Shown piece by piece: positions 1 through 46,025 of a stretch of DNA of 64,000 nt (positions are counted from its first letter, which is position 1; each line of letters begins with the position of its first letter). The stretch is taken from IMG/VR virus record IMGVR_UViG_638275431_000001, positions 19,196 through 83,195 of that record; one strand, given 5' to 3'. The notes beneath the pieces were generated by a model. The model did no database searches and was not told the DNA's origin. It worked only from the letters and a program-made list of their open reading frames with translations. Origin of the DNA: a virus. Lineage: Duplodnaviria; Heunggongvirae; Uroviricota; Caudoviricetes; Straboviridae. The translations under genes and the position numbers were made by a program.

Positions 1-898
1 ATATCCATAAACTTCAAAACATCGGCTTCTACGACAGGCGGAATTTGCGTTCCTGACGGCCACGCAAAACACGCTTCATTGAATGGATTGCGATCACGAA
101 GAGGAATAACCATTACCTTTTCGCCTTCAACAATCTCTGGAATTGATTGGTCAGTTTTTGCAATCCGGTTATATGCAAGGGCTCCTTTCACATGATATGG
201 AGCTCCTTTAATTGGATATCCTGCCGAATCCGCGTTTTTGGCGATATTATTCGCAGAAGACACTGCGGCAATCTCTTGATAATCGATCGTTTTGAATTCA
301 TTCTTGAATTGAATGAAATAATTTTGCAAAGAAGATTCACCTTCTTGCAGCAACCGACGAATTGACTCTTTTAGCGATTTTTGACAAGCCAAAGGAGTGG
401 ATGATCGTTGAGTTTCCAAACCCATGATTTTAAGATGCGGTTCTGCGTATCGAGTGCCTTCCATGTCGTAGACATTTAGTGCATATCTTTTCTTACCAGT
501 CCAAAACCCGCCAATCCCATCCGAACCAAGTGGAGCTCCAAATATGGCCTCACGATCCATTAACAACAAATGGTGATCATTATTCATATATTTTTCAAGT
601 TCTTTATAGGACTCGTCAATATATGGTTCAAGCCTCTTTTGACCCAAGTTGTCCAAAAAGTCAATCAAGTGATTGGTATCTTTGAATTTTTCAATTCCTA
701 CTTTATTGACAACTGCTTCCATGTTGAGATACACCGAGTCAGTATCAATATAACACACATAATCAACATTAGTTGTTTTGACGAGATTGTTGATATATTC
801 GTTCAGTTTACGCTCAATCCACCGAATAGCCAATTGACCGTAAGTTGTAATAGCTTCAGCATTTCGCAAATCGTAGAATCGGAAGAAGTTGTTACCCA
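1..898 (-). CDS. 43: DNA polymerase gp43B, 3' exon (partial; continues past the window start). Translation GNNFFRFYDLRNAEAITTYGQLAIRWIERKLNEYINN...YIDTDSVYL...KKRYALNVYDMEG...EPHLKIMGLETQ matches T4 gp43 residues ~560 onward
   Basis: Manual translation of the minus strand from 896 downward; the T4 gp43 DTDS motif C region is present. The ORF finder lists no ATG-initiated ORF here because the exon has no start codon and is fed by splicing. Confidence 0.8.
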
Positions 899-1245
899 CA
901 TGTTATTCGCCTAGGGTCGTTAATCCTAGACCGCGGATTATGCTTCACAGCATTAACTCGCAGCTATATGTTGCCATATATGTTTAGACTATATTATATA
1001 CCTTTTCGGTATCCCGGCGCTTCCACTCACTTGAGTGTACTCTACTCGGTTCAACATATGTTGCCTTTCGATAGTCGTTGCACCTTCTTGTTAGCCCTGC
1101 TTTGGAGGCTTTGGTGTTATTACTCGACAAACCATTTCTGGTAACACCTTTTACATCGCGTTCATACTAACAAGCTTGGCTCAGGATTGTCTCATTGAGA
1201 TTTCCCCTGAGTTCACCGGGTTTAACGTGCGCCTGGGTTAGTTTA
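899..1245 (-). mobile_element. ORF-less group I intron inside 43B (~347 nt)
   Basis: No ORF in any frame. P7-like pairing cgACTAtcg...aTATAGTCtaaac resembles the R/S elements of T4 td-type introns. A P1 helix can form between the exon end GUGCGU and an internal guide GGCGCAC, giving a U-G at the 5' splice site. The intron ends in G (...aacatG). The predicted splice restores ...SLYGAL|GNNFFRFYDL in frame. Confidence 0.7.
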
Positions 1246-1414
1246 ACGCACCATAAAGCGAGTTGATCAAAATTTTGCGATTAAGTTGATTTGTGTTGCG
1301 CTTTTGTTCTTCTTTTTCACAAGACACAATTACTTTTTGAAGTTCGTCATTTGACAGAGTATTCAGGTATTCAAGTTCAGCGTCATTAAAATCACGAAAT
1401 AATTCAAGTTCCAT
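1246..1414 (-). CDS. 43: DNA polymerase gp43B 5' exon (MELELFRDFNDAELEYLNTLSNDELQKVIVSCEKEEQKRNTNQLNRKILINSLYGAL, motif A region). An in-frame ATG at 1438 overlaps the HEG 3' end. The ATG at 1414 has RBS AAGGA
   Basis: Aligns to T4 gp43 VERYVKF...ANTNQLNRKILINSLYGALG. A stop codon follows LYGAL(N) at the intron boundary. Confidence 0.75.
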
Positions 1415-1416
1415 TG

Positions 1417-2223
1417 TTAATCCTTCTTTTGCTTGCATTTATCAAAATGCCAACGTTTCATCGCGTGCGAGACACCTTCTTTCAAACAATGTGGGCATTG
1501 TATCATAACCCGTGGCAATTTATTCCAACGTGCTTTTGCTGATGCTGATAGCAATTCCTTTGTTTCGCGCGACAATGTAACACCTAGACGTGACATAATA
1601 AAACTCGTGCTGCTTCGGCCACGCTCAGCTTGCTTAAGTCGCATCTCGGGTGTCCATGCGTCAGATAATGCCTTTTTATGTGTTTCTTTAAATTTAATGC
1701 CTTTCAAAACAGAGTCGTTTTGTTCGTAAAATTGTCGTAATGACATTTTGCGTTTTTCTATCGTTTCTGCTGAATCCTTTGAACCAATCCGAGCGGCCGA
1801 AGCTTTTTTGAAATTTTCTATTGACGATTTGCGACAGCGCTCACTAGATTTGCGCGACTCACTGACTGACTTTGAATGTTTCTTTTTATCATTCGCTGAA
1901 CAATAACGCATCCAATTATTATCACCCTTTGTATCAATGTGAGACCAGCCTCCCTTTCCGCCAATAGCCATGTTATACGTTTCGGGCATATCAACAAAAT
2001 AGGCATCAACGATTTCCGATTCAACGAAATATGCTAACTCTTCGCAATCAAATTCCGCTAAAATTTCTCGATCAAAATTTGAAATACCATATTTCGTGAT
2101 AGCATGTCGTATAGCACGGCCACTGCCCATATACGGATCAGTTTCAATGTTATCAGATTTGTGAACGCCGACATAGTATCGGCCGTTCAGCTTGTTTGTT
2201 ACTTTATAAAGATACCACATCAT
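1417..2223 (-). CDS. Free-standing GIY-YIG homing endonuclease (seg-like), inserted between the 43A and 43B cistrons
   Basis: N-terminal YLYKVTNKLNGRYYVGVH...GSGRAIRHAIT...NMAIGGKGG GIY-YIG module; basic C-terminal DNA-binding region; RBS GAGGAG 5 nt upstream. Confidence 0.8.
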   Translation of the reverse strand: MMWYLYKVTNKLNGRYYVGVHKSDNIETDPYMGSGRAIRHAITKYGISNFDREILAEFDCEELAYFVESEIVDAYFVDMPETYNMAIGGKGGWSHIDTKGDNNWMRYCSANDKKKHSKSVSESRKSSERCRKSSIENFKKASAARIGSKDSAETIEKRKMSLRQFYEQNDSVLKGIKFKETHKKALSDAWTPEMRLKQAERGRSSTSFIMSRLGVTLSRETKELLSASAKARWNKLPRVMIQCPHCLKEGVSHAMKRWHFDKCKQKKD

Positions 2224-2231
2224 TTCTCCTC

Positions 2232-2253
2232 GGGGTTATTTTATCATAACCCC
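2232..2253 (-). promoter_or_regulatory. Intercistronic untranslated hairpin (ggggtta..taacccc) followed by RBS GAGGAG, between 43A and the HEG
   Basis: Perfect 6-7 bp inverted repeat with a 10-nt loop seen in the sequence, placed between the 43A stop and the HEG start. Confidence 0.5.
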
Positions 2254-2264
2254 GTCTTCTGTAA

Positions 2265-3761
2265 TCAATGGTCTGTTTTAATTCCGCGAGAAGCCAGAAT
2301 TTTCTTAATTGCTTCCTGATTTCGAATTGCAGCTAGCATCATCTTTTTCTCGGATTTACGTTGGAGAAATACTTTTTCAGTTTCAGTTGGCAGTACCCCG
2401 GTGACTCCTTTCTTATACATCATACCGTTCGGTGCGCAACTGAATTTATCTGAGGGTTTAGGAGCAACGCCAGATATATAGTCTTCAATCCTTGCAGGAG
2501 AAAACATCCCTGCGATCATCTCAGGACTAATGTTCAACAATCTGAGGATAGATGGATACAAAGATGTTAAGTCAAAGCTCATGCCATATCGATACGCACC
2601 AGGAACAGGTTCTTTTACGTATGCTCCAGGGAAACTTTGCTTTGGACTAGCTTTCATCATTGGAATAACTACATTTTTCTCAACAAGCGAATTGAAAATG
2701 ATAGAATCCCAAACTTTGATAGTTCCTAGTACATCCTCGAAACGAATTTTCGCGTAATAGCAAAGAGACAGAATAAGATCAATAAAGCATCGACGGCCAT
2801 CGATCAACAGAATAATATCCGTATCTCGCACGCAGTAATCGACATATCGCTGGTGATCTGCTGCTCGGAACTTATTAATTGGGCCATCATATTCCAATTT
2901 GTCTGCTTTAACTTCACGGTATCCGACATTGCCCAATTTATAGTCAGGCATAACAGTGAAACTGAACTTTTTGAAAACATCCATATAATCCATTAGTGCA
3001 ACACCATGGATACGATAGATCGTTTTTTCACCGTACATATTTGTAATTGTTTTTGAGCTGATCTTGCCGTATGGGCTTAATTGGTTAGCTGCACTTTCAC
3101 CCAAGATGTTGATAATTCGAGTGATAATGTACGGAATATCGAAACCTTCGCTGTTCCAACCAAACACCAAATCAGGGGTAGATGATTTCCATAGTTGAAT
3201 ATAGTTGAGAAGAAGATCAATTTCAGTGTCGAATGGCATGTAAACGACATTGTCAAGAATATATTTGTCCAAAACAGACTTAGATGGGTCCCAATGGCCT
3301 ACATCTTTAACAAGGTCAAAAATGTAATATGTCTTTTTGCCCTCGTGCAAACGCACATGGGAAATCATATCAATTTCATATTTTGCAAATTTGGGATCAG
3401 GGAATTCTGGAGCTGTTACTTCGATATCGACTACATCAATAATGACATTGTCACGATCAAAATCAATAACTCCGCGATAATTATCGGAGATGTAGGAAAT
3501 GCAATAGTCGTCCATACCCATGGCGTCTTGGCCAATTTCGGCCATTCGTTTCTGCCATTGCTTTGCTTCCCAAATGTTTTCATGCTTCTTCGGTACGCAA
3601 AAACGTCCATAGATGTCTTTGTGCTTTGTCTCTACACCTGGGGCGGCATGATGAAAGAGTGTCGGCTGATAGTTCGTTTTTCGCGATAGTCTTACACCGT
3701 CTTTAACGTAACGCTCAAAAACGGTATTTCCAATAACTTCGATGTTCGTGTAATGCTGCAT
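2265..3761 (-). CDS. 43: DNA polymerase gp43A (N-terminal exonuclease domain plus part of the polymerase domain, 498 aa). It ends where 43B picks up
   Basis: Collinear with T4 gp43 residues 1-~500 (FDIEV, YMPFD, HQRYVDYCVRD, SFPGA, FDLTSLYPSI, KKILASRG). Confidence 0.9.
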   Translation of the reverse strand: MQHYTNIEVIGNTVFERYVKDGVRLSRKTNYQPTLFHHAAPGVETKHKDIYGRFCVPKKHENIWEAKQWQKRMAEIGQDAMGMDDYCISYISDNYRGVIDFDRDNVIIDVVDIEVTAPEFPDPKFAKYEIDMISHVRLHEGKKTYYIFDLVKDVGHWDPSKSVLDKYILDNVVYMPFDTEIDLLLNYIQLWKSSTPDLVFGWNSEGFDIPYIITRIINILGESAANQLSPYGKISSKTITNMYGEKTIYRIHGVALMDYMDVFKKFSFTVMPDYKLGNVGYREVKADKLEYDGPINKFRAADHQRYVDYCVRDTDIILLIDGRRCFIDLILSLCYYAKIRFEDVLGTIKVWDSIIFNSLVEKNVVIPMMKASPKQSFPGAYVKEPVPGAYRYGMSFDLTSLYPSILRLLNISPEMIAGMFSPARIEDYISGVAPKPSDKFSCAPNGMMYKKGVTGVLPTETEKVFLQRKSEKKMMLAAIRNQEAIKKILASRGIKTDH

Positions 3762-3800
3762 AATATATCCTTCTAAATGGCCTCAACAGAGGCCATTTCA

Positions 3801-4157
3801 TTAACCAAATTTATACTTCGCGATAAGCTGCCATTCACACTTTTGCTTGTGGCTAATAACTCTAAAATTATTGTGAGTTGACAATTCAATAGGAGTTAGT
3901 ATTTTACACAAATTCCATGACTGAAGCAACGAAGCAATATTATTTCGTCTAGAAATATCTTCTTCGGAAATTGATACTGGTAGACCATCTAGTTTCAGCA
4001 TTTCCTTGAAATGAACAATGAAATATTTGCCTTGCTTTTGAAGAATATGGCAGCTTTGATAAAGTTTCTTTTCTTTATTAGAAGCAATGCCAATTCGTGT
4101 AAGTGTTTCAGCAATTTTCAGAAAATCATCAGGATGATTGATATCGATTTGGATCAT
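3801..4157 (-). CDS. regA: RegA translational repressor
   Basis: PDDFLKIAETLTRIGIASNKEKKLYQSCHILQK...YFIVHFKEM...NNFRVISHKQK matches T4 RegA. Confidence 0.9.
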   Translation of the reverse strand: MIQIDINHPDDFLKIAETLTRIGIASNKEKKLYQSCHILQKQGKYFIVHFKEMLKLDGLPVSISEEDISRRNNIASLLQSWNLCKILTPIELSTHNNFRVISHKQKCEWQLIAKYKFG

Positions 4158-4166
4158 AAGAAAACC

Positions 4167-4766
4167 TTAGAATTTTTTAGCCAACTTAAGCATCTGCGTT
4201 TGATCTTTTGCTGTTTTCGCAACAGTTTTAACAAATGCTGGAGTTACAATAAATTTGTGATTTTTCAGAAAATCATTCAAAGTGTTTCGCCTTTGCATGA
4301 TTTGCATATACATCTTTGCGGTGTGCAAATCAACGTTATTCGCTGCTTGTATAACGGCAATATAAAGCTTTTCATCGATTGATTCATCTAGTTTAGGCCA
4401 TTTGCCGTAAATTTTGCCTTTTCTTATAGATGACACCAGGTAATTGTATTGTGCTTGGGCCGGCAATGCTGTCAGAAGATTCATGACGTATGCCGAATAT
4501 AGCGTTTCGGCATGCATCGAAAGAGCATTATTGATAAACCATGCCGGGTAATCACTATTTGATACACATTTTTCCGTTTTGTTGTAAGTGATATCATCCA
4601 ACAATGCGAATGCATTGTTTTCGGCAGGTTCTTTGAACATATCAGCTAATGCTGATACGGCATCCCAATCTTTCGATTTCCAAGCAATTTCATGCTCGTT
4701 GAGTTGCTCATCATCACCCATAAGGAAATTCAAATTCATATCGAACTCCTTACAGCCAGTTACCAT
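4167..4766 (-). CDS. 62: Clamp-loader small subunit gp62
   Basis: QLNEHEIAWKSKDWDAV...KMYMQIMQ similarity to T4 gp62. Overlaps the gene 44 stop, consistent with translational coupling. Confidence 0.8.
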   Translation of the reverse strand: MVTGCKEFDMNLNFLMGDDEQLNEHEIAWKSKDWDAVSALADMFKEPAENNAFALLDDITYNKTEKCVSNSDYPAWFINNALSMHAETLYSAYVMNLLTALPAQAQYNYLVSSIRKGKIYGKWPKLDESIDEKLYIAVIQAANNVDLHTAKMYMQIMQRRNTLNDFLKNHKFIVTPAFVKTVAKTAKDQTQMLKLAKKF

Positions 4767-5715
4767 GGAATTCTACGGCAAGCTGAACGAACATATATTG
4801 AACATGAATCTCGATATTTGCAGCTTGACCAAACAGTTGGTTGTTTTCACCGATAATTTCGTACATGCGAATTTTTGCCGGACCATTAACGAGCGGGTAC
4901 AATGCATTGCATAGACGTTCAACAAAACCAGCGTAATCAGTCGTGTATTGACCAGCCATTGCACGAAGCGATTTCAAATCTTTAGCTTTAAGTGCATCAA
5001 TGACTTGTTCGATATCGTTGCGGGTATTGAGAACCAGACTCAGAATACCGCTGTCAATTTTACCTTCGGATGCATAGAAATCCATCTCGTTGACAGTTTT
5101 ACGGAAATCAGGGAAGTTCTTTTTAACCAAAGCGGCAATAACTTTGCGATCTTCAACTTCGATATTTTCAGCATCACAAATTGCTTCGGCACGAACAATC
5201 ATCTGTTTCATCATATTGACTTTATCAGATTGATCGGCTTTACCAAATTGAATAACACGACACCGTGATTGAAGTGCTGGAATAATTCCACCCAAATCAT
5301 TCGCAGTAATGATAAATGTGCAATTTTTGGAATGAGCTTCCATGAATGAGCGAAGATGACGCTGAGAATCTGCAAGACCCGCTCGATCAAATTCATCGAT
5401 GATAATTACTTTTCCACCTGCTGCCATAGTTTTAGAGCTTGCAAATGGAGTCATAACATCGCGAACAAAATCAATTTTTGCGTCTGCGCCGTTAACGAAC
5501 AAAAACTCGGCTTCAACTTCTGATACCAGAGCTTTGGCGACGGTAGTTTTACCTGTGCCTGGGGAAGGAGAATGAAGAATAATGTTGGGGATACGACCAG
5601 ATTTGACGATAGATTTGAAAATCTTTTTGTCATATTCTGGCAAAATGCATTCATCGATTGTTCCTGGACGATATTTGTTTTCAAACATGAATTCGCCGGC
5701 ATTAACTGTCAACAT
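4750..5715 (-). CDS. 44: Clamp-loader ATPase gp44 (AAA+)
   Basis: Walker A SPSPGTGKTTVAKAL, Walker B IIIDEFDR, SRC motif QSRC. Confidence 0.9.
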   Translation of the reverse strand: MLTVNAGEFMFENKYRPGTIDECILPEYDKKIFKSIVKSGRIPNIILHSPSPGTGKTTVAKALVSEVEAEFLFVNGADAKIDFVRDVMTPFASSKTMAAGGKVIIIDEFDRAGLADSQRHLRSFMEAHSKNCTFIITANDLGGIIPALQSRCRVIQFGKADQSDKVNMMKQMIVRAEAICDAENIEVEDRKVIAALVKKNFPDFRKTVNEMDFYASEGKIDSGILSLVLNTRNDIEQVIDALKAKDLKSLRAMAGQYTTDYAGFVERLCNALYPLVNGPAKIRMYEIIGENNQLFGQAANIEIHVQYMFVQLAVEFHGNWL

Positions 5716-37310: not shown

Positions 37311-38090
37311 TTATCCTAACAATGAATTAATATCAGGTCGATAATTCTCAAAATATTTGGGTTTTATTTTGGTATCATATTTTGTTGACAACTCATCTGC
37401 GAGTTTGAATTTATCAACAAATCGCCCATCTATAATAGTTATTACGTCCGATATATTAATTTGTTTTAAGAATTTTATTGCCTTTCTCGCCGCTCTTACA
37501 CCTTCGGCATTTTTGGCCTTGACGTCAGGGCGGCTTTGTGTTTCTTTTTGTATTGCCGACATACGCTCGGAATAACCAGGACGGCTATAAAGTTCAGCAT
37601 GTCGCTCAACTCGTTTTTGTCGTTCTTCCGGTCGATTGCATGCAACTCGCATACGGTTGCTGTGCTTTTTAATTTCATCACTGTCTTTATATCGCTTAAT
37701 CATTTTCTGACGTGATGTTTCACGAAATGCTTCTTTTCTCTCATCGGAAGCATACCGTAAAGCATTTCCACCAAAACCACCGTATGCGATATTAGTACAA
37801 TTCGGGTTATCAACCATACTTGAAATTAACAAAATTTCCGCTTCAATCATCTCTTCTTCGGTTGAATGTTCAAACCATTCAACCGATTTTATGCAAGAAA
37901 CACCGTATTTTGATATGGCATTTCTTAAAATTAGTCCAGACCCACAATAGGGGTCCGATAGAGGATTAATATGCGTACTTTTATGCATACCACAATAAAT
38001 TTTCTCACCTGATGATGTTTCAAATTTTGTCACATATGTTCTATAAAAGGGGCTTTCGCCCCTTGCAGTTAGCCCTGGCATGCTAAACAC
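37311..38090 (-). CDS. Second free-standing GIY-YIG homing endonuclease (seg-like), overlapping the 3' end of nrdA by 22 nt
   Basis: FYRTYVTKFETSSGEKIYCGMH...NIAYGGFGGN; paralog of the HEG at 1417..2223. Confidence 0.7.
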   Translation of the reverse strand: MFSMPGLTARGESPFYRTYVTKFETSSGEKIYCGMHKSTHINPLSDPYCGSGLILRNAISKYGVSCIKSVEWFEHSTEEEMIEAEILLISSMVDNPNCTNIAYGGFGGNALRYASDERKEAFRETSRQKMIKRYKDSDEIKKHSNRMRVACNRPEERQKRVERHAELYSRPGYSERMSAIQKETQSRPDVKAKNAEGVRAARKAIKFLKQINISDVITIIDGRFVDKFKLADELSTKYDTKIKPKYFENYRPDINSLLG

Positions 38091-42744: not shown

Positions 42745-42814
42745 AAAAAGGGTAGTCCTATGGGATTGGACCGATGGCCAGCGACTTAGAAGGTTGCTGC
42801 TCTATCCTGCTGAG
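42745..42814 (-). pseudogene. tRNA-Arg(UCU)-like sequence with intact D-arm and anticodon loop but a non-canonical T-arm and acceptor 3' strand; probable pseudo-tRNA
   Basis: ggtccct-ta-GCTCagcaggataGAGC-a-gcaaccTTCTAAgtcgc..., then ggtccaatccc where GGTTCGAATCC is expected, and no strand complementary to the acceptor. Confidence 0.35.
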
Positions 42815-42831
42815 CTAAGGGACCATAGTGA

Positions 42832-42855
42832 CTAAAAAGCCGCATTCAAGCGGCT
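42832..42855 (-). terminator. Rho-independent terminator (gccgcattcaagcggc plus U-run) after the NADAR gene
   Basis: Hairpin plus T-run. Confidence 0.55.
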
Positions 42856-42875
42856 CGGAGACGTTCGCGTATCCG

Positions 42876-43298
42876 TTAGAGATTTGAACAAAATTCTTGC
42901 TCGGTCAATACAGTTTCACTCTTTTTGCTTTTTCCCCATTTGAGGGGAGTAAATGAGGAATTATGGGTAGCAAGAATCGCTCTCTGGAAACCAGCGTTCT
43001 TTGACATCTCATCGAATGCACGATTTATCAGTTCGGTATAAGCTTCATGCTGTCGATGTATCGGTTGGCCTTTCCAATAAAGGAGTTGATCTCTCCACCA
43101 ATTCTTTTTCTTTCCCTTGAATTTGGCAGTTTTTCCGACCAATGTACAAACATGCTCTTGCATTTCTGGAGATTTGAACTTCAGCGATTGCAGAAATCCT
43201 TCCATAGATGCGCATCGGATGCCATCTATGAAAAACTCGTGCGGGGCAAAGTTGCTGAGGGCACATGACGGCCATGCCGAACCAGATCCGATTTCCAT
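42876..43298 (-). CDS. NADAR-domain protein (YbiA/DUF1768 family; N-glycosidase acting on ADP-ribose conjugates)
   Basis: LSNFAPHEFFIDGIRCASMEGFLQSLKF ... AILATHNSSF match the DUF1768/NADAR signature (SNF..F...G..F.S.EH.FQA.KF). Confidence 0.6.
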   Translation of the reverse strand: MEIGSGSAWPSCALSNFAPHEFFIDGIRCASMEGFLQSLKFKSPEMQEHVCTLVGKTAKFKGKKKNWWRDQLLYWKGQPIHRQHEAYTELINRAFDEMSKNAGFQRAILATHNSSFTPLKWGKSKKSETVLTEQEFCSNL

Positions 43299-43397
43299 AA
43301 TATATCCCTCAAAAGTGGTGGGTTCTGCTGATATCGAAACAGCATCATCAGGATGACTAGCAACCTACGGTCTTCCCATTAAACGAAGAACCCAAAT

Positions 43398-43473
43398 TGG
43401 TGGCCCTCGCGGGAATCTAACCCGCCTTACCCCAGTTATGAGCTGGACACATTCACAGACTGTGCAGAGGGCC
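43398..43473 (-). tRNA. tRNA (anticodon CAU; Met or Ile2/k2C); T-loop TTAGATT is atypical
   Basis: Manual cloverleaf: acceptor ggccctc/gagggcc, anticodon loop cuCAUaa, encoded CCA. Confidence 0.55.
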
Positions 43474-43680
43474 TAGAGACGAAAAAGCCCGTAACGGTCG
43501 ATTGACAAGTCATGGGGCGTTGTTTTAATTAGGACGCTTGCTAGGGTCTCGAACCCATCACGAATATACGCACGTGTAGACTGCCAGACAACAGGTACTT
43601 AGTAAGCTACTTTAAGGTTCCGGTTCGCGACCCTTTCCCGTATTTTGCTATTTTCCCACGTCTAAGCAAGCGATTGAAGT

Positions 43681-43757
43681 TGGATGCGACGAACGGATTC
43701 GAACCGTTGATTTTCGGGATATGAGCCCGACGAGGACGACCTCTCCTCTACGTCGCA
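43681..43757 (-). tRNA. tRNA-Met(CAU)
   Basis: Acceptor tgcgacg/cgtcgca, D gagg/cctc, anticodon loop cuCAUau, T-loop TTCGAAT, CCA. Confidence 0.65.
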
Positions 43758-43779
43758 TTTGAATCTTGAAAATTTAGAG

Positions 43780-43852
43780 CGGAGCCACCGAGGATCGAAC
43801 TCGGTGCTATCCCGTGACAGGGGATTATTTTAACCGTATAAACTATGGCTCC
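43780..43852 (-). tRNA. tRNA-Asp(GUC)
   Basis: Acceptor ggagcca/tggctcc, anticodon stem atccc/gggat, loop cuGUCac, T-loop TTCGATC. Confidence 0.65.
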
Positions 43853-43929
43853 GCTCTAAACTCTGTTTTGGTATGAGTTAATCATATCACTCATTGGGAA
43901 GTTTGAAACAATGTGCTTCAGGATGCATT

Positions 43930-44017
43930 TGGCGGAGAAGGAGAGATTCGAACTCTCGAAACCTTTCGGTTTACTTCCTTAGCAGGGAAGCGATTTCAGC
44001 CGCTCATCCACTTCTCC
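43930..44017 (-). tRNA. tRNA-Ser(GCU), long variable arm
   Basis: Acceptor ggagaag/cttctcc, anticodon loop cuGCUaa, variable arm aaaccgaaaggttt, CCA. Confidence 0.65.
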
Positions 44018-44024
44018 TAAAATT

Positions 44025-44100
44025 TGGTAGTGGATATTGGGATCGAACCAATGCGCTCTCGATTATCGGTCGAGTGCTCTACCTACTGAGCTAATCCACT
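44025..44100 (-). tRNA. tRNA-Ile(GAU) (position 33 is C, atypical)
   Basis: Acceptor agtggat/atccact, D gctc/gagc, anticodon loop ccGAUaa, CCA. Confidence 0.5.
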
Positions 44101-44102
44101 AT

Positions 44103-44178
44103 TGGCATGACATCAAGGATTCGAACCCTGGCCGCACGGTTTTGGAGACCGGCATGCTACCGCTAACACCAATGTCAT
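44103..44178 (-). tRNA. tRNA-Trp(CCA)
   Basis: Acceptor atgacat/atgtcat, anticodon loop cuCCAaa, T-loop TTCGAAT, CCA. Confidence 0.6.
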
Positions 44179-44333
44179 ATTGAAACGATCTGGGCGCACC
44201 ATTTCCAGACAAAACCTCGTCGGAGGCCAAGGGCCAGCTAGATATGATACAGGCCGACGCCCTCGTCATATCCAGATGGTCTTCCCTTTTACTTAACGAA
44301 CGGGTCCGAAGAAGTCCGTTCCTTTGTATTTAT

Positions 44334-44519
44334 TTAGCGATTGAGTCTTGAGATACAAAAATATGGATAAGTACCGTCAATGGCCACCAAAGCACCGGCA
44401 AAAGCAGAGCCAATCAAATTACCCGCAATTCCGGAAGGGGAGTCTGAATATCGCTTGTAATCGCCCACGAAAGAGCAAATAAAGAAGATAACACGCATAA
44501 CTTGATAAGCAAACAACAT
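44334..44519 (-). CDS. Small membrane protein (61 aa) embedded in the tRNA cluster
   Basis: RBS GAGGAAAA; two hydrophobic segments. Confidence 0.4.
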   Translation of the reverse strand: MLFAYQVMRVIFFICSFVGDYKRYSDSPSGIAGNLIGSAFAGALVAIDGTYPYFCISRLNR

Positions 44520-44542
44520 AATATTTTCCTCATTTAAAAATT

Positions 44543-44618
44543 TGGAGCCAATTGTCAGATTCGAACTGACGACCTACGTATTACAAATACGTTGCACCTA
44601 CCGCTGTGCTAAATTGGC
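44543..44618 (-). tRNA. tRNA-Thr(UGU)
   Basis: Acceptor gccaatt/aattggc, anticodon loop uuUGUaa, T-loop TTCGAAT, CCA. Confidence 0.65.
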
Positions 44619-44878
44619 AATTAACCAATTCTTCAAACACTCTCCCTAACGCTGCAGCTCGGGACTGAGATTTTCTGTTTTTAACGTGGGGATGTCTCGG
44701 CCGCCACATAAACAAGAGTGTTTGAAGAATTGGAGTCAGGGCCTTACGGATGTGACTCAATTCTTCAGCTTGCGCGGTTCTGGATAACCGCATCACTGGG
44801 ATAGTGCCAGGAGAGGATTTTACCGCATTCGACGACTTTACGGACTTGGTTTGCAACCAAGTATCCGCTTACGTAATT

Positions 44879-44957
44879 TGGTCCGTGTGGAAGGGATTCG
44901 AACCTTCGACTTTCTGGCCCCAAACCAGACGACCTAACCTGACTAGCCTACACACGG
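44879..44957 (-). tRNA. tRNA-Pro(UGG); D-arm pairing imperfect
   Basis: Acceptor ccgtgtg/cacacgg, anticodon stem tctgg/ccaga, loop uuUGGgg, CCA. Confidence 0.5.
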
Positions 44958-45201
44958 ATTAAATTTGGCACCCCGTCTATACTTCCTCGTTTCACCGCGC
45001 AAAATGACGGGAGTGACTACTGAAGTTTTGTCCGAGGATTTTACGGGACGTCTCCCGATTTCTCTTGTTAAAGCCGGTCATCTAAGTGCCGGAGACAATA
45101 CGGTTGTCCAACTCACGGGCTCCAGTCACGGCGCAATAATGGACAGTGCATCAACCAGGGGTGCGAAACTGACTAGGAGTCTAGAGCCCTGTGACTTGTG
45201 T

Positions 45202-45277
45202 TGGAGCGAATAATCGGGATCGAACCGATGACATTCTGCTTGGAAGGCAGAAGCTCTACCAACTGAGCTATATTCGC
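45202..45277 (-). tRNA. tRNA-Gly(UCC)
   Basis: Acceptor gcgaata/tattcgc, D gctc/gagc, anticodon loop cuUCCaa, T-loop TTCGATC, CCA. Confidence 0.7.
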
Positions 45278-45301
45278 AAAATAATCTATTTACTGCAAAA
45301 C

Positions 45302-45391
45302 TGGTGGATACTGATGGATTCGAACCATCTTGTTTACCCTGAGGGAACGGATTTACAGTCCGCCGCTGGCCGCGGTCGTAGCCGAGTATCC
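45302..45391 (-). tRNA. tRNA-Tyr(GUA), long variable arm
   Basis: Acceptor ggatact/agtatcc, anticodon loop cuGUAaa, long variable arm, CCA. Confidence 0.6.
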
Positions 45392-45403
45392 ATAAAGTTG
45401 ATT

Positions 45404-45486
45404 TTGGCGGTGATGGTTGGAGTCGAACCAACGTAGAGTTTCCTCGCCGGTTAACAGCCGGCCGCATGGCCGTTATGCTACATCAC
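45404..45486 (-). tRNA. tRNA-Asn(GUU) with an unusually long (13-nt) variable region
   Basis: Acceptor ggtgatg/catcacc, D gcat/atgc, anticodon stem gccgg/ccggc, loop cuGUUaa, CCA. Confidence 0.55.
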
Positions 45487-45566
45487 CCCAAAATCAACTT
45501 GTTTTAATCGATGAGACAATAATATCTCATTTCCAGCAACTCTGAACAATATGCTTCAGAATTAAT

Positions 45567-45649
45567 GGGTGCTGGTAGGATTCGAACCTACGATACGCTT
45601 TCGTATGTCCTGCATTAGGACCGCCTTAAGCCGCTCGGCTCACAGCACC
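45567..45649 (-). tRNA. tRNA-like gene with long variable arm (Leu/Ser class architecture). The anticodon arm folds as a 5-bp stem with only a 5-nt loop (aatgc), so the identity is uncertain and it may be non-functional
   Basis: Acceptor ggtgctg/cagcacc, T-arm gtagg-TTCGAAT-cctac, variable hairpin atacg-aaag-cgtat; no encoded CCA. Confidence 0.4.
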
Positions 45650-45655
45650 TCAATT

Positions 45656-45749
45656 TGGAGGAAGATATCCGATTCGAACGGATGGACCGTATTCCTACGA
45701 TCGCCGGTTTTCAAGACCGGTGCCTTAAACCAACTCGGGCCAATCTTCC
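45656..45749 (-). tRNA. tRNA-Ser(UGA), long variable arm
   Basis: Acceptor ggaagat/atcttcc, anticodon stem ccggt/accgg, loop cuUGAaa, CCA. Confidence 0.65.
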
Positions 45750-45940
45750 AGAATTCTTTTCGAATCTAAACACTTCCTGCGTCACTAAGATGAGAGTTCT
45801 GTCCACTTAAGGCTTGCTCCAGGAAAACCATGGCTTTTCACCATTTATCCCATTCAAGACTGAATGCGTGTTTTGATTCGATAAGTTAATAATATCTTAT
45901 TTCCAAAGCGTGTAAACAATATGCTTTAGAAATTTGAATT

Positions 45941-46025
45941 TGGTGCAAGTAGTGGGACTCGAACCCACAATCCCGAAGGCGGGAGGTTTTAAGCCTCCAG
46001 TGTATACCAATTCCACCATACTTGC
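45941..46025 (-). tRNA. tRNA-Leu(UAA), long variable arm
   Basis: Acceptor gcaagta/tacttgc, anticodon stem ggagg/cctcc, loop cuUAAaa, T-loop TTCGAGT, CCA. Confidence 0.65.

Follow-up and report, generated by a model that had tools for sequence, protein, structure and literature searches.

Collaborative (trans) homing is very probably the best explanation for how a split DNA polymerase gene, a free-standing GIY-YIG homing endonuclease gene (HEG), and a group I intron without an ORF move in the virus examined here. This mechanism had been proposed from a sequence-only reading, and it is supported by its agreement with existing annotation, the literature, covariation within the intron, an I-TevI-like fold in the endonuclease, a mosaic block in the genome, and the pairing of HEG and intron subtypes. 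The locus lies at one end of the window, by which we mean the whole 64,000-nucleotide stretch that was analyzed, and is 100% identical over 3.8 kb to the Aeromonas phage 25 records DQ529280, NC_008208, and AY303350. It is gene 43 of that phage, which encodes a T4-type family B replicative DNA polymerase. The two-cistron polymerase gene with its free-standing HEG and ORF-less group I intron has already been published and annotated. GenBank labels 43A, a GIY-YIG endonuclease, and a 43B "split by group IA2 intron," and the gene is treated in Petrov et al. 2006 (J Mol Biol 361:46) and Petrov, Ratnayaka & Karam 2010 (J Mol Biol 395:457). The collaborative-homing reading of the phage 25 locus is a rediscovery and no new idea. 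What our analysis may add to the published record is a co-conversion block relative to the later-sequenced phage AhMtk13a, along with the finding that E. coli phage G2285 has the cassette. The locus consists of the following features:

2265 to 3761, minus strand: 43A, N-terminal subunit of the family B polymerase, 498 aa (open reading frame list; 43A in GenBank)
2226 to 2254, minus strand: hairpin and ribosome-binding site, published as "IC-UTS" (predicted fold; review PMC2988022)
1417 to 2223, minus strand: GIY-YIG HEG, named helc25 or seg43(25), an 807-nt open reading frame (GenBank annotation)
1246 to 1414, minus strand: 43B exon 1, 169 nt (open reading frame; junction mapped exactly against the intron-less alleles of Aes012 and AhMtk13a)
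899 to 1245, minus strand: ORF-less group I intron, 347 nt, subgroup IA, labeled IA2 in GenBank (Rfam, covariation, GenBank)
1 to 898, minus strand: 43B exon 2, which runs off the start of the window and leaves 108 nt of the gene outside it (GenBank CDS join)

A split polymerase gene and a free-standing endonuclease gene

By alignment, the polymerase is made up of two cistrons, 43A and 43B, with the boundary between them at the fingertip. The 43A cistron ends with a clean TGA stop; within it lie the exonuclease domain and the initial half of the fingers, as well as motif A, which reads DLTSLYPS (Pfam DNA_pol_B_exo1, 2e-19; DNA_pol_B, 5e-11); residues 3-511 of T4 and RB69 gp43 align to it with E values of 1e-149 to 1e-153. 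The second cistron begins at an ATG at 1414, two bases past the HEG stop. The fingertip's second half is encoded by its exon 1, which also holds motif B (K47...NSLYG55) and aligns to RB69 gp43 residues 519-570, with K47, N51, Y54, and G55 corresponding to RB69 K560, N564, Y567, and G568. Exon 2 supplies the palm and thumb together with motif C (YIDTDS), and its part of the spliced translation aligns to residues 571-867 (E 1.4e-135). After splicing, 43B is 391 aa long, reads SLYGAL-GNNFFRFYDL across the predicted junction, and aligns to RB69 gp43 without gaps at that point. Jointly, 43A and spliced 43B span residues 3-867 of RB69 and T4 gp43 with no overlap (43B, 512/519-867), which supports two cistrons of a single family B polymerase. 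The fingertip has been described as the split point of the polymerase (PMC3061061), and according to a review the two phage 25 products co-purify with polymerase activity (PMC2988022). The 43A and 43B fragments would assemble into an active enzyme, as the literature reports.

The sequence bears out all coordinates and structural features given by the sequence-only reading, including the 498-aa 43A cistron with its clean stop, the hairpin plus ribosome-binding site behind it, the new start of 43B, and the resumption of coding at GNNFFRFYDL. Two of its labels are wrong. Exon 1 had been described as 56 codons ending after SLYGAL, an imprecise count since Leu57 is a split codon (T|TG; TTA if unspliced, TTG if spliced), so that the exon holds 56 codons to SLYGA plus the first base of Leu57. 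In addition, the intron had been placed at motif A. That motif lies in 43A, and the intron interrupts the gene two codons past the YG of motif B; as mapped by sequence, its insertion point lies just after the first base of the Leu codon that follows this motif (KxxxNSLYGA-L).

Between the cistrons, a 9-bp stem (CGGGGUUAU/AUAACCCCG, 2254..2246 with 2239..2231, span 2254..2231) closes a GAUAAA loop and abuts a GAGGAG ribosome-binding site at 2231..2226. The hairpin folds at -19.3 kcal/mol (z -2.67), a value that none of 200 shuffles equaled. All 17 relatives have the GAUAAA loop after the 43A stop, on stems that covary, and in each case it immediately precedes the ribosome-binding site of the next cistron. 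In phage 25, the hairpin and ribosome-binding site drive the HEG, which is of the Seg type and sits inserted between the hairpin and 43B.

The 807-bp GIY-YIG gene was also correctly identified by the earlier reading as an open reading frame, but its start at 2223 is likely one codon too early. The GenBank entry and all homologues begin at the second ATG, at 2220, giving a protein of 267 aa that starts with MWY, and this is likely the true start. The product matches PHROG 314 ("homing endonuclease") at 3.4e-47. Its scores against PF01541 (15.0; cut-off 22.6), PF19835 (19.3-19.6; cut-off 25), and TIGR01453 (26.8; cut-off 56) fall below threshold; within the family, seven of seven members match PF19835 and six of seven match PF01541, the best at an E value of about 2e-4. 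The family assignment is supported by structure prediction. An AF2 model of residues 1-90 (pLDDT 94-97) has the order beta-beta-alpha-beta-alpha-alpha, and its top and sole meaningful PDB match in Foldseek is the I-TevI catalytic domain (1ln0_A/B, probability 1.00, TM 0.61-0.63 across 91-93 columns when normalized to the target); the match ranked after it has an E value of 1.7. The N-terminal domain is thus modeled with the GIY-YIG alpha/beta catalytic fold of I-TevI. Among 22 homologues, Y5 and Y16-V-G18 are invariant, and E67 and Y82-N83 are invariant or nearly so. A basic residue (R/K38) follows the GSG motif and is, by alignment, the putative equivalent of the catalytic Arg, and the profile runs in register with I-TevI (IYQIKN...KVYVG...YN). 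The protein also has a conserved C-terminal CPHC...HFDxC motif, and NUMOD3 repeats are present in homologues. A review associates this HEG, seg43(25), with the split gene 43 (PMC2988022).

A group I intron without an ORF

The 347 nt between the 43B exons form a group I intron, as had been surmised from td-like P7 elements, a U-G pair at the splice site, and a terminal G. Each of these elements was located, along with all helices of the conserved core, namely P3-P4-P5-P6, P7-P8-P9, and the P3/P7 pseudoknot; a P2 was not discernible in the phage 25 intron. The elements are:

1251..1246 (exon) with 1232..1227 (guide), minus strand: P1, GUGCGU/GCGCAC, with U1246·G1232 at the 5' splice site
1238..1234 (ACCCA) with exon 2 898..894 (UGGGU), minus strand: P10, directly 5' of the P1 guide
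1220..1214 with 1019..1013, minus strand: P3, by helix mapping, as for all helices down to P9.2
1210..1205 with 1186..1181, minus strand: P4
1200..1197 with 1193..1190, minus strand: P5
1180..1178 with 1084..1082, minus strand: P6
1076..1072 (GACUA) with 991..987 (UAGUC), minus strand: P7
1071..1046, minus strand: P7.1
1037..1024, minus strand: P7.2
1012..998, minus strand: P8
980..965, minus strand: P9
963..931, minus strand: P9.1
929..911, minus strand: P9.2
899, minus strand: terminal G, at the intron end ...AACAUG
1096..1171, minus strand: P6 extension (P6a/b), 76 nt (alignment columns 96-171)

Scoring against the group I covariance model, which the earlier reading had suggested as a check, gave 64.2 bits for Rfam RF00028 (gathering score 50, E 1.5e-15), with homologues at 68.8-83.6 bits; the match (1292..964) is offset from the true intron, taking in 47 bases of the 5' exon and missing P9.1 and P9.2 (963..899). 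The splice sites are fixed because P1, with its U·G pair, and P10 both pair with the exons. Compensatory changes convert P1 from GUGCGU/GCGCAC to GGAGCUU/GAGCUCC in type-B introns, and P10 reads ACUUG/UAGGU in phiAS4-type introns and ACUCG/UGGGU in G2285. Across 65 pairs in 12 related introns, 97% of cells were paired compared with 29-50% in slid controls, and 17 pairs changed on both sides compared with 0-2, although the shuffle statistics overstate independence because the relatives are closely related. Both-side changes occur in P3, P6, P8, and P9, while P4 and P7 give no covariation evidence because they are invariant. Furthermore, P7.1 and P7.2 covary (CAAC/GUUG, CAGC/GCUG, CGG/CCG; CACUC/GAGUG and CACCC/GGGUG), and their position, after P7's 5' strand and ahead of P3's 3' strand, places the intron in subgroup IA; IA2 is GenBank's label. 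A review classes 25.g43B as a group I intron. Stops interrupt the intron in each of its three frames and leave no ORF of endonuclease size, the longest being 48 aa from a TTG start, and the unspliced 43B frame reads ...SLYGALN before a stop at 1240..1238. In 2010, Petrov and colleagues reportedly obtained self-splicing of this intron in vitro.

It is possible that the intron once carried its own endonuclease. Under this scenario, the intron lost an ORF that lay in one of its peripheral loops, P6 for instance, and is now mobilized by a newly arrived free-standing HEG, so that the locus would represent a stage of decay and replacement and not the precursor of a composite intron. This alternative has been raised in the literature on collaborative homing loci (PMC10448857). 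It concerns the origin of the system and is compatible with collaborative homing as its mechanism. P6 is a common site for intron ORFs, and it is here that phage 25 and UP87 carry the 76-nt extra segment, whose base stem (CUUGUUAG/CUAACAAG) was found in the predicted fold. HNH ORFs occur inside distantly similar introns of other phages, and the HEG of Aes517 has decayed by truncation. Yet the extension has no second copy within the window and no detectable similarity to endonuclease genes or to anything else in the phage collection, it is too short to judge, and the other 11 of 13 introns have just a 3- to 4-bp P6a hairpin at this position. A member of the intron family with an internal ORF was not found. 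We therefore regard such a turnover as unlikely.

Joint movement of endonuclease gene and intron

With collaborative homing, the endonuclease would act on co-infecting relatives whose 43B alleles have no intron, cutting near the site of intron insertion, which in alleles such as those of AhMtk13a and Aes012 reads ...GGTGCTCTTGGTAA... The genome of phage 25 itself would be spared because the intron interrupts the target site. Recombinational repair off the phage 25 allele would then copy the intron, the flanking exon, and often the HEG into the recipient, and splicing would restore ...SLYGAL|GNNFFRFYDL, with the guide pairing to the last six bases of exon 1 and the first five of exon 2. The intron encodes no endonuclease, and the HEG stands apart from it as a gene that ends 171 nt upstream; reviews describe 25.g43B as lacking its own HEG and "predicted" to use the free-standing one.

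The distribution of the two elements is consistent with this mechanism. An identical intron site is found in 13 Aeromonas-group alleles, which retain the architecture with intact exon reading frames, and in the E. coli phages G2285 and PSD2002. All eight HEG-bearing phages have the intron, and none of at least 11 intron-less phages has the HEG (Fisher 0.003, for lineages that are not independent), as expected if the intron guards against self-cleavage. The target of the endonuclease is accordingly predicted, from sequence comparison, to coincide with the intron site, making intron-plus alleles immune. Six phages have the intron without the HEG, indicating that the two are not obligately linked. 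Where both are present, HEG subtypes pair one to one with intron subtypes.

The idea that HEG and intron move together gained further support from a comparison with AhMtk13a, a HEG-less and intron-less relative whose backbone is otherwise nearly identical to that of phage 25. The comparison delimits one feature:

723 to 2286, minus strand: mosaic (co-conversion) block

This block reaches from ~22 nt before the end of 43A, through the hairpin, HEG, exon 1, and intron, to a point ~175 nt into exon 2. Inside it, 73 of 371 comparable nucleotides differ (19.7%), compared with 13 of 2193 outside (0.6%; Fisher P 1.2e-50). As a sequence pattern, the block shows recombination without pointing to which nuclease initiated it, and it is consistent with the joint inheritance, by co-conversion, of HEG, intron, and flanking exon.

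An argument can be made that the HEG homes independently by ordinary "intronless homing," with a target at some unrelated site such as the place between the hairpin and 43B where it is itself inserted, and that the intron hitch-hikes passively in long co-conversion tracts. The HEG stop is only 171 nt from the intron, well within the ~1.5-kb mosaic block, and the 5' haplotype of exon 1 tracks HEG type, which would be expected around the HEG's own insertion site. An HNH HEG fills the same intercistronic slot in the intron-less phage 50AhydR13PP, and a review describes the mobilization of the intron by the HEG as "predicted." Nevertheless, the HEG-plus alleles are all intron-plus, and this HEG occurs in no intron-less allele. 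Moreover, the HEG-less, intron-plus phages Aes151, Aes144, and AS-gz show the HEG-less haplotype in exon 1 up to about nt 100 and the intron-linked haplotype from there on, on the intron side. Breakpoints within exon 1 suggest tracts that start near the intron site, and are as expected of a conversion tract ending short of the HEG; they look like footprints of trans-mobilization of the intron without the HEG. The phage 25 HEG is also said, in the 2010 work of Petrov and colleagues, to cleave intron-free homologues of the 43B site specifically. Independent homing is accordingly quite improbable.

Finally, the notion that the locus is a product of faulty sequencing or assembly, or that the polymerase gene has decayed, with neither splicing nor subunit assembly, has nothing in its favor beyond the interrupted reading frame and is scarcely credible, as it is ruled out by comparative data: three records agree, including an independently deposited 7.5-kb clone, 13 related alleles share the architecture with intact exon frames, the RB69 gp43 alignment is gap-free across the junction, the intervening RNA has compensatory base changes, and the phage has no other replicative polymerase.

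Comparable systems and a possible transferable cassette

The phage 25 locus has counterparts among other phages. In T7-like phages such as T3, a group I intron that lacks an ORF and lies within the DNA polymerase gene also has a free-standing HEG adjacent to it, but the polymerase is of family A and encoded by one cistron, whereas that of phage 25 is of family B and encoded by two (Bonocora & Shub 2009, Curr Biol 19:223). In cyanophage S-PM2, a psbA intron is associated with the free-standing F-CphI and the host protein is unsplit (Zeng, Bonocora & Shub 2009, Curr Biol 19:218); F-CphI has an Endo VII-type catalytic motif (PMC6083498). As in phage 25, the free-standing mobE of T4 trans-mobilizes a nearby intron that has no working endonuclease, but MobE belongs to the HNH enzymes and the intron, which lies in nrdB, keeps a truncated HEG, the defunct I-TevIII (Wilson & Edgell 2009, PMC2790892). 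The terminase intron of Vibrio phage ICP1, for which collaborative homing has been discussed, has a HEG beside the upstream exon; unlike in phage 25, this HEG is of the T5orf172 type and the host gene is the large terminase (Barth et al. 2023, PMC10448857). The T4 td intron resembles that of phage 25 in its IA2 type, its GACUA/UAGUC P7, and its association with a GIY-YIG endonuclease. I-TevI, however, is encoded within the td intron, whereas the phage 25 HEG lies outside, 171 nt upstream of an intron without a discernible P2. The HEG of the T7-like systems reportedly belongs to the HNH family, in contrast to the GIY-YIG enzyme here.

Beyond Aeromonas phages, the E. coli Mosigvirus G2285 carries the whole cassette; in its relatives, the gene is unsplit. 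G2285 shares the split point and has a hairpin plus ribosome-binding site, a HEG that is 40% identical, an Aeromonas-like exon 1, and an intron at the same base; among 311 related records, most of the searched cassette stretch occurs only in G2285. In the E. coli Dhakavirus PSD2002, the gene is unsplit and holds only the intron. With about even chances, the hairpin, the HEG, exon 1, and the intron could constitute one transferable cassette that crosses genera and makes the unsplit polymerase into which it homes a two-subunit enzyme. In 2010, Petrov and colleagues are said to have proposed these elements as an integrated system for the lateral transfer of polB material. A genus-crossing cassette would at best add natural examples to that proposal.

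Organization of the gene 43 locus

Three records of Aeromonas phage 25 (AY303350.2, DQ529280.1, and NC_008208.1) match the reverse complement of window positions 1..3800 with 100% identity. GenBank divides the stretch into 43A (DNA polymerase, N-terminal half), a GIY-YIG endonuclease, and 43B. The homing endonuclease gene (HEG) is listed there as helc25, "not conserved in bacteriophage 44RR2.8t," and 43B as a CDS in two pieces, "split by group IA2 intron; C-terminal fragment," whose lengths of 1523 nt with the intron and 1176 nt without it agree with the junctions that we mapped. Reviews of T4-related phages already describe the locus. One of them gives the endonuclease the name seg43(25), describes the unusual hairpin upstream of the HEG, and states that the phage 25 43A and 43B products co-purify with polymerase activity present (PMC2988022). 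The primary publication on the locus is by Petrov, Ratnayaka, and Karam (2010, J Mol Biol 395:457).

Features of gene 43 in the window
3761..2265, minus strand: 43A, an ORF of 498 aa with a TGA stop
2254..2246 / 2239..2231, minus strand: 9-bp hairpin, abutting GAGGAG at 2231..2226
2223 or 2220 (adjacent ATGs) to 1417, minus strand: HEG ORF, likely start 2220
1414, minus strand: start of 43B, two bases past the HEG stop
T1246 and T898, minus strand: end of exon 1 and start of exon 2, from alignment with the intron-less, HEG-less Aes012
1245..899, minus strand: intron, a 347-nt insertion relative to the Aes012 allele

The observation first made from sequence is real, and its interpretation is correct save for a motif label and a codon count. 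As had been read, 43A stops cleanly, a hairpin and ribosome-binding site (RBS) follow it, and 43B has its own start behind the endonuclease gene. The intervening RNA is indeed ORF-less: unspliced 43B reads ...INSLYGALN and stops at 1240..1238, and the intron has stops in all frames, its longest ORF being 48 aa from a TTG start. The insertion is placed by alignment with the Aes012 allele, which reads ...TATGGTGCTCTT/GGTAACAAC... across the junction, and in the spliced product, SLYGAL-GNNFFRFYDL, coding resumes where it had been expected to. Because exon 1 ends at T1246 and exon 2 begins at T898, the Leu57 codon is split T/TG. Exon 1 had been described as 56 codons ending exactly after SLYGAL; the 56 complete codons stand, while the exon carries one more base and does not end after SLYGAL. 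The HEG probably starts at 2220, since all homologues begin MWY, and exon 2 extends 108 nt beyond the window start.

The intron had also been assigned to the motif A codons, which proved wrong: motif A (DLTSLYPS) lies in 43A, whose alignment spans residues 3-511 of T4 and RB69 gp43. Spliced 43B aligns without gaps to RB69, such that K47, N51, Y54, and G55 correspond to K560, N564, Y567, and G568 of motif B (KxxxNSxYG), and it is here that the intron sits. The roles of RB69 K560 and N564 have been described (PMC3061061).

A hairpin follows the 43A stop in all relatives (n = 17), with a loop of UAUGAUAAAAUA or close variants and with stems that differ between lineages and remain complementary. 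Immediately 3' of it there is always the RBS for whichever cistron follows, 43B where the HEG is absent and the HEG where it is present; in phage 25, the HEG is inserted between the hairpin and 43B. In Escherichia coli phage G2285, a hairpin and a GGAGG likewise precede the HEG. The element is the published intercistronic untranslated sequence. It acts neither as terminator nor as RBS trap; in phage 25 it has no U-tract and does not sequester the RBS.

The intron and the endonuclease

The intron matches Rfam RF00028 at 64.2 bits, above the gathering score of 50, and the 64-kb window has no other group I intron. The limits of that match (1292..964) are offset and were rejected as intron boundaries on the basis of intron-less alleles and P1/P10. 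Homologous introns at the identical site were gathered from 12 other phages, and that of PSD2002 was added from a separate search. Helices of the phage 25 intron were mapped onto an alignment of 12 distinct introns, including its own; AS-gz (identical to Aes144) and PSD2002 (found later) were left out. We scored 65 pairs in P1 (part), P3, P4, P5, P6, P7, P7.1, P7.2, P8 (outer), P9, P9.1, and P9.2. MAFFT puts three exon bases of P1 and the inner pairs of P8 out of register; for P8, the outer three pairs alone were counted, and P1 and P10 were tabulated from raw sequences outside the alignment.

Standard pairs occupied 97.0% of cells (65 pairs, 12 introns), compared with 29-50% in slid controls whose 3' partners had been moved by 1-3 columns. 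Both-sided changes affected 17 pairs versus 0-2 in these controls, and the observed covariation score was matched by none of 500 shuffles. P4 and P7, the latter with the GACUA/UAGUC elements recognized earlier, never vary, so their evidence is neutral. The predicted P1 with a U-G splice site was also recovered: GUGCGU pairs with GCGCAC with a U·G at the splice site, and exon 2 UGGGU pairs in P10 with ACCCA, directly 5' of the guide. P1 is GGAGCUU with GAGCUCC in "type B" introns, and P10 is UAGGU with ACUUG in the phiAS4 subgroup. Since the pairings differ by intron type, the guide covaries with synonymous exon differences. The presence of P7.1 and P7.2 assigns the intron to subgroup IA; we looked for P2 in the phage 25 intron and did not find it.

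A 76-nt extension of P6 (1171..1096, minus strand) is found in phage 25 and UP87 alone and is identical in both. Because UP87 has this extension yet otherwise carries a "type B" intron, the introns are themselves mosaics. The extension folds no better than shuffles (z -1.3). As a candidate repeated or mobile mini-element it was discarded, having no second copy in the window and UP87 as its sole match in the phage collection.

For the HEG protein, GIY-YIG matches in Pfam and NCBIfam were sub-threshold and, for that reason, were not taken as proof of membership. PHROG 314 ("homing endonuclease") matched at 3.4e-47. A single-sequence search of the PDB returned spurious matches of the RACK1 and Hsc70 type (E of 0.1 or worse), and a family-profile search ranked I-TevI first, at E 0.28. 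With PDB sequence matches at these levels, a fold search was needed to settle the family. In an AlphaFold2 model built on the database-homologue alignment, residues 1-90 had a pLDDT of 94-97, and Foldseek against the PDB returned the I-TevI catalytic domain (1ln0) as the sole meaningful match (probability 1.00; target-normalised TM 0.61-0.63; next match E 1.7). In addition, Y5, Y16-V-G18, a basic residue at 38, E67, and Y82-N83 are conserved in an alignment of seven gene-43-associated homologues, which also have NUMOD3-like repeats and an invariant C-terminal CPHC...HFDxC, and the core residues are kept across 22 database homologues. The modelled I-TevI fold, along with the conserved motifs, leads us to accept the product, as originally proposed, as a predicted GIY-YIG member at the level of fold and motifs.

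No T4-type late promoter (TATAAATA), as found for I-TevI, was present near the HEG or within 35 kb. A SNORA30 match inside the gene (1492..1585, plus strand) was attributed to chance (E 0.13, with 22.9 bits where the gathering score is 90). Elsewhere in the window, nrdA is directly followed downstream by another free-standing endonuclease gene of the GIY-YIG (Seg-like) kind (37311..38081, minus strand); this gene is annotated PHG25p101nc, "not conserved in 44RR2.8t," and its N-terminal domain is 36% identical to that of the gene-43 HEG. The window also contains a cluster of 13 tRNA genes (42753..46025, minus strand), the same number as in the review table for phage 25.

Distribution among related phages

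HEG family members between 43A and 43B (percentages are identity to phage 25)
Phage 25: reference; intron present
Aes002: 92%; intron present
Aes120: 48%; intron present
phiAS4 and Aes508: 46%; intron present
Aes512: 41.5%; intron present
Aes517: truncated; intron present
E. coli phage G2285: 40%; intron present

All eight HEG-bearing phages in the phage collection have the intron, and this HEG occurs in none of at least 11 intron-less relatives (Fisher 0.003, for lineages that are not independent). UP87, Aes151, Aes144, AS-gz, Aes516, and PSD2002 have the intron without a member of this HEG family. Intron-less junctions read GGTGCTCTTGGTAA in Aes012, GGTGCTCTTGGCAAT in avDM3/ZHF, and GGGTGTTTGGGTAAC in IME13/50AhydR13PP. 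The latter two phages have SLYGCL (GGGTGTT/TGGGTAAC) in place of SLYGAL, and in 50AhydR13PP exon 2 shows 0/175 differences from phage 25 over its initial 175 nt, and the 43A/43B gap holds an HNH endonuclease gene. This type of allele could reflect precise intron loss or resistance to cleavage.

Other relatives are rearranged further. In phiAS4 (340-1914), the 43A stop is lost and the ORF continues into the HEG gene, and Aes517 (1777-2268) has a truncated HEG; both resemble stages in the decay or rearrangement of the cassette. In Aes144, AS-gz, Aes516, Aes517, Aes508, and Aes512, a split intein interrupts 43B once more, at the codons for motif C (YIDTDS), 161 nt downstream from the intron site, in most cases with a VSR-like endonuclease ORF between the intein halves. 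A single polymerase gene can thus combine a cistron split, HEG, intron, and split intein.

Most of the searched cassette stretch was present in 1 of 311 related records, that of G2285.

Gene 43 features in two E. coli phages
MK327933 (Mosigvirus vB_EcoM_G2285), 1416-5217: three-part cassette, same as phage 25
1416-2936: 43A, 506 aa, stop at the same fingertip position
2992-3813: HEG, 273 aa as annotated (277 aa from an in-frame upstream ATG), 40% identical to that of phage 25
3813: 43B ATG, overlapping the HEG stop
After GGTGCGT at 3981: group I intron, 232 nt, 83.6 bits
OK335775 (Dhakavirus PSD2002), about 2550-2778: closely related intron at the identical motif-B base

Exon 1 of G2285 ends ...NSLYGAL, with the junction GGTGCGT/...G/TGGGTAAC and exon 2 starting TGGGTAAC; in its record, a misc_feature stands for the polymerase, with the remark "unable to determine intron/exon boundaries." Gene 43 of PSD2002 is unsplit and lacks the HEG; its record enters it as two separate "DNA polymerase" CDSs. 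An intron in an unsplit gene shows that the intron does not depend on the cistron split, and the two arrangements together make split, HEG, and intron separable. From these comparisons, the full three-part module appears to have passed from one phage genus to another as well, which agrees with the reported proposal of lateral transfer of polB sequence.

Outside one block, phage 25 differs from AhMtk13a, a relative without HEG or intron, at 13 of 2193 positions. Within it, 73 of 371 positions differ (P 1.2e-50), counted over the final 27 nt of 43A, all of exon 1, and the initial 175 nt of exon 2. The divergent block covers window 2286..723, with the hairpin, HEG, and intron inside. Since divergence is concentrated in this block, phage 25 consists of an AhMtk13a-like backbone with one imported segment, or else one segment was replaced in AhMtk13a.

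Probable spread of the intron and significance of the locus

Building on the anatomy, RNA structure, endonuclease fold, recombination block, and HEG-intron association documented here, the published account is best supported, and we regard it as very probably correct: PolB has two subunits, the IA intron is self-splicing, and a GIY-YIG endonuclease of the Seg type spreads the intron. The endonuclease would cleave intron-less alleles, and cleavage would spread the intron, flanking exon sequence, and often the HEG too, with 43A and 43B acting as a two-subunit PolB. For cleavage specificity, splicing, and subunit assembly, we infer or draw on the literature. In the primary paper, from 2010, Petrov, Ratnayaka, and Karam reportedly found that the phage 25 intron self-splices in vitro and that the HEG product specifically cleaves intron-free 43B homologues; they are also said to have proposed that the polB insertions work as one integrated system by which polB sequence is transferred laterally. 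According to the literature, the majority of decisive experiments on phage 25 have already been done.

A variant on the origin of the system, in which the free-standing HEG replaced a lost intronic one, is compatible with this mechanism, and such replacement has been discussed for other loci (PMC10448857); for gene 43, we consider it unlikely. The main rival, in which the HEG homes to a site of its own and carries the intron along as a passive passenger, seems to us slightly less probable still. Bearing on it is exon 1, where the first ~100 nt follow HEG type and the last ~69 nt follow intron type. Over those last ~69 nt, phage 25 shows no differences from Aes151, and likewise Aes144 and AS-gz, and exon 2 is near-identical over its first 175 nt in several intron-plus alleles despite 3-8% difference in 43A. 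HEG-less intron-plus alleles change haplotype near exon 1 nt 100, a pattern that a conversion tract begun near the intron site and ended short of the HEG would produce. The switch fits trans-mobilisation of the intron by the HEG, and does not thereby prove which nuclease was responsible for the break. An artefact or pseudogene reading of gene 43 is excluded by the comparative data.

Spread of the intron by a Seg-type endonuclease is not a new proposal for this locus, which has been known, annotated, and experimentally studied for more than 15 years. Since it has been in the literature and GenBank since 2006-2010, nothing new in biology follows from our finding, which serves as a positive control: architecture and mechanism were correctly recovered from raw sequence alone. 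There are modest additions for specialists, namely the co-conversion block and its sharp edges relative to AhMtk13a, the matching of HEG subtypes to intron subtypes, the cassette in G2285, where the record leaves the gene unresolved, and the intron in the unsplit gene of PSD2002. More generally, gene 43 is a textbook-grade natural case of three kinds of selfish or insertional element (a cistron split, a free-standing HEG, and an ORF-less self-splicing intron) meeting in one essential gene. The locus shows the modularity of a family B polymerase, and it illustrates a possible origin of mobile introns through collaborative homing.
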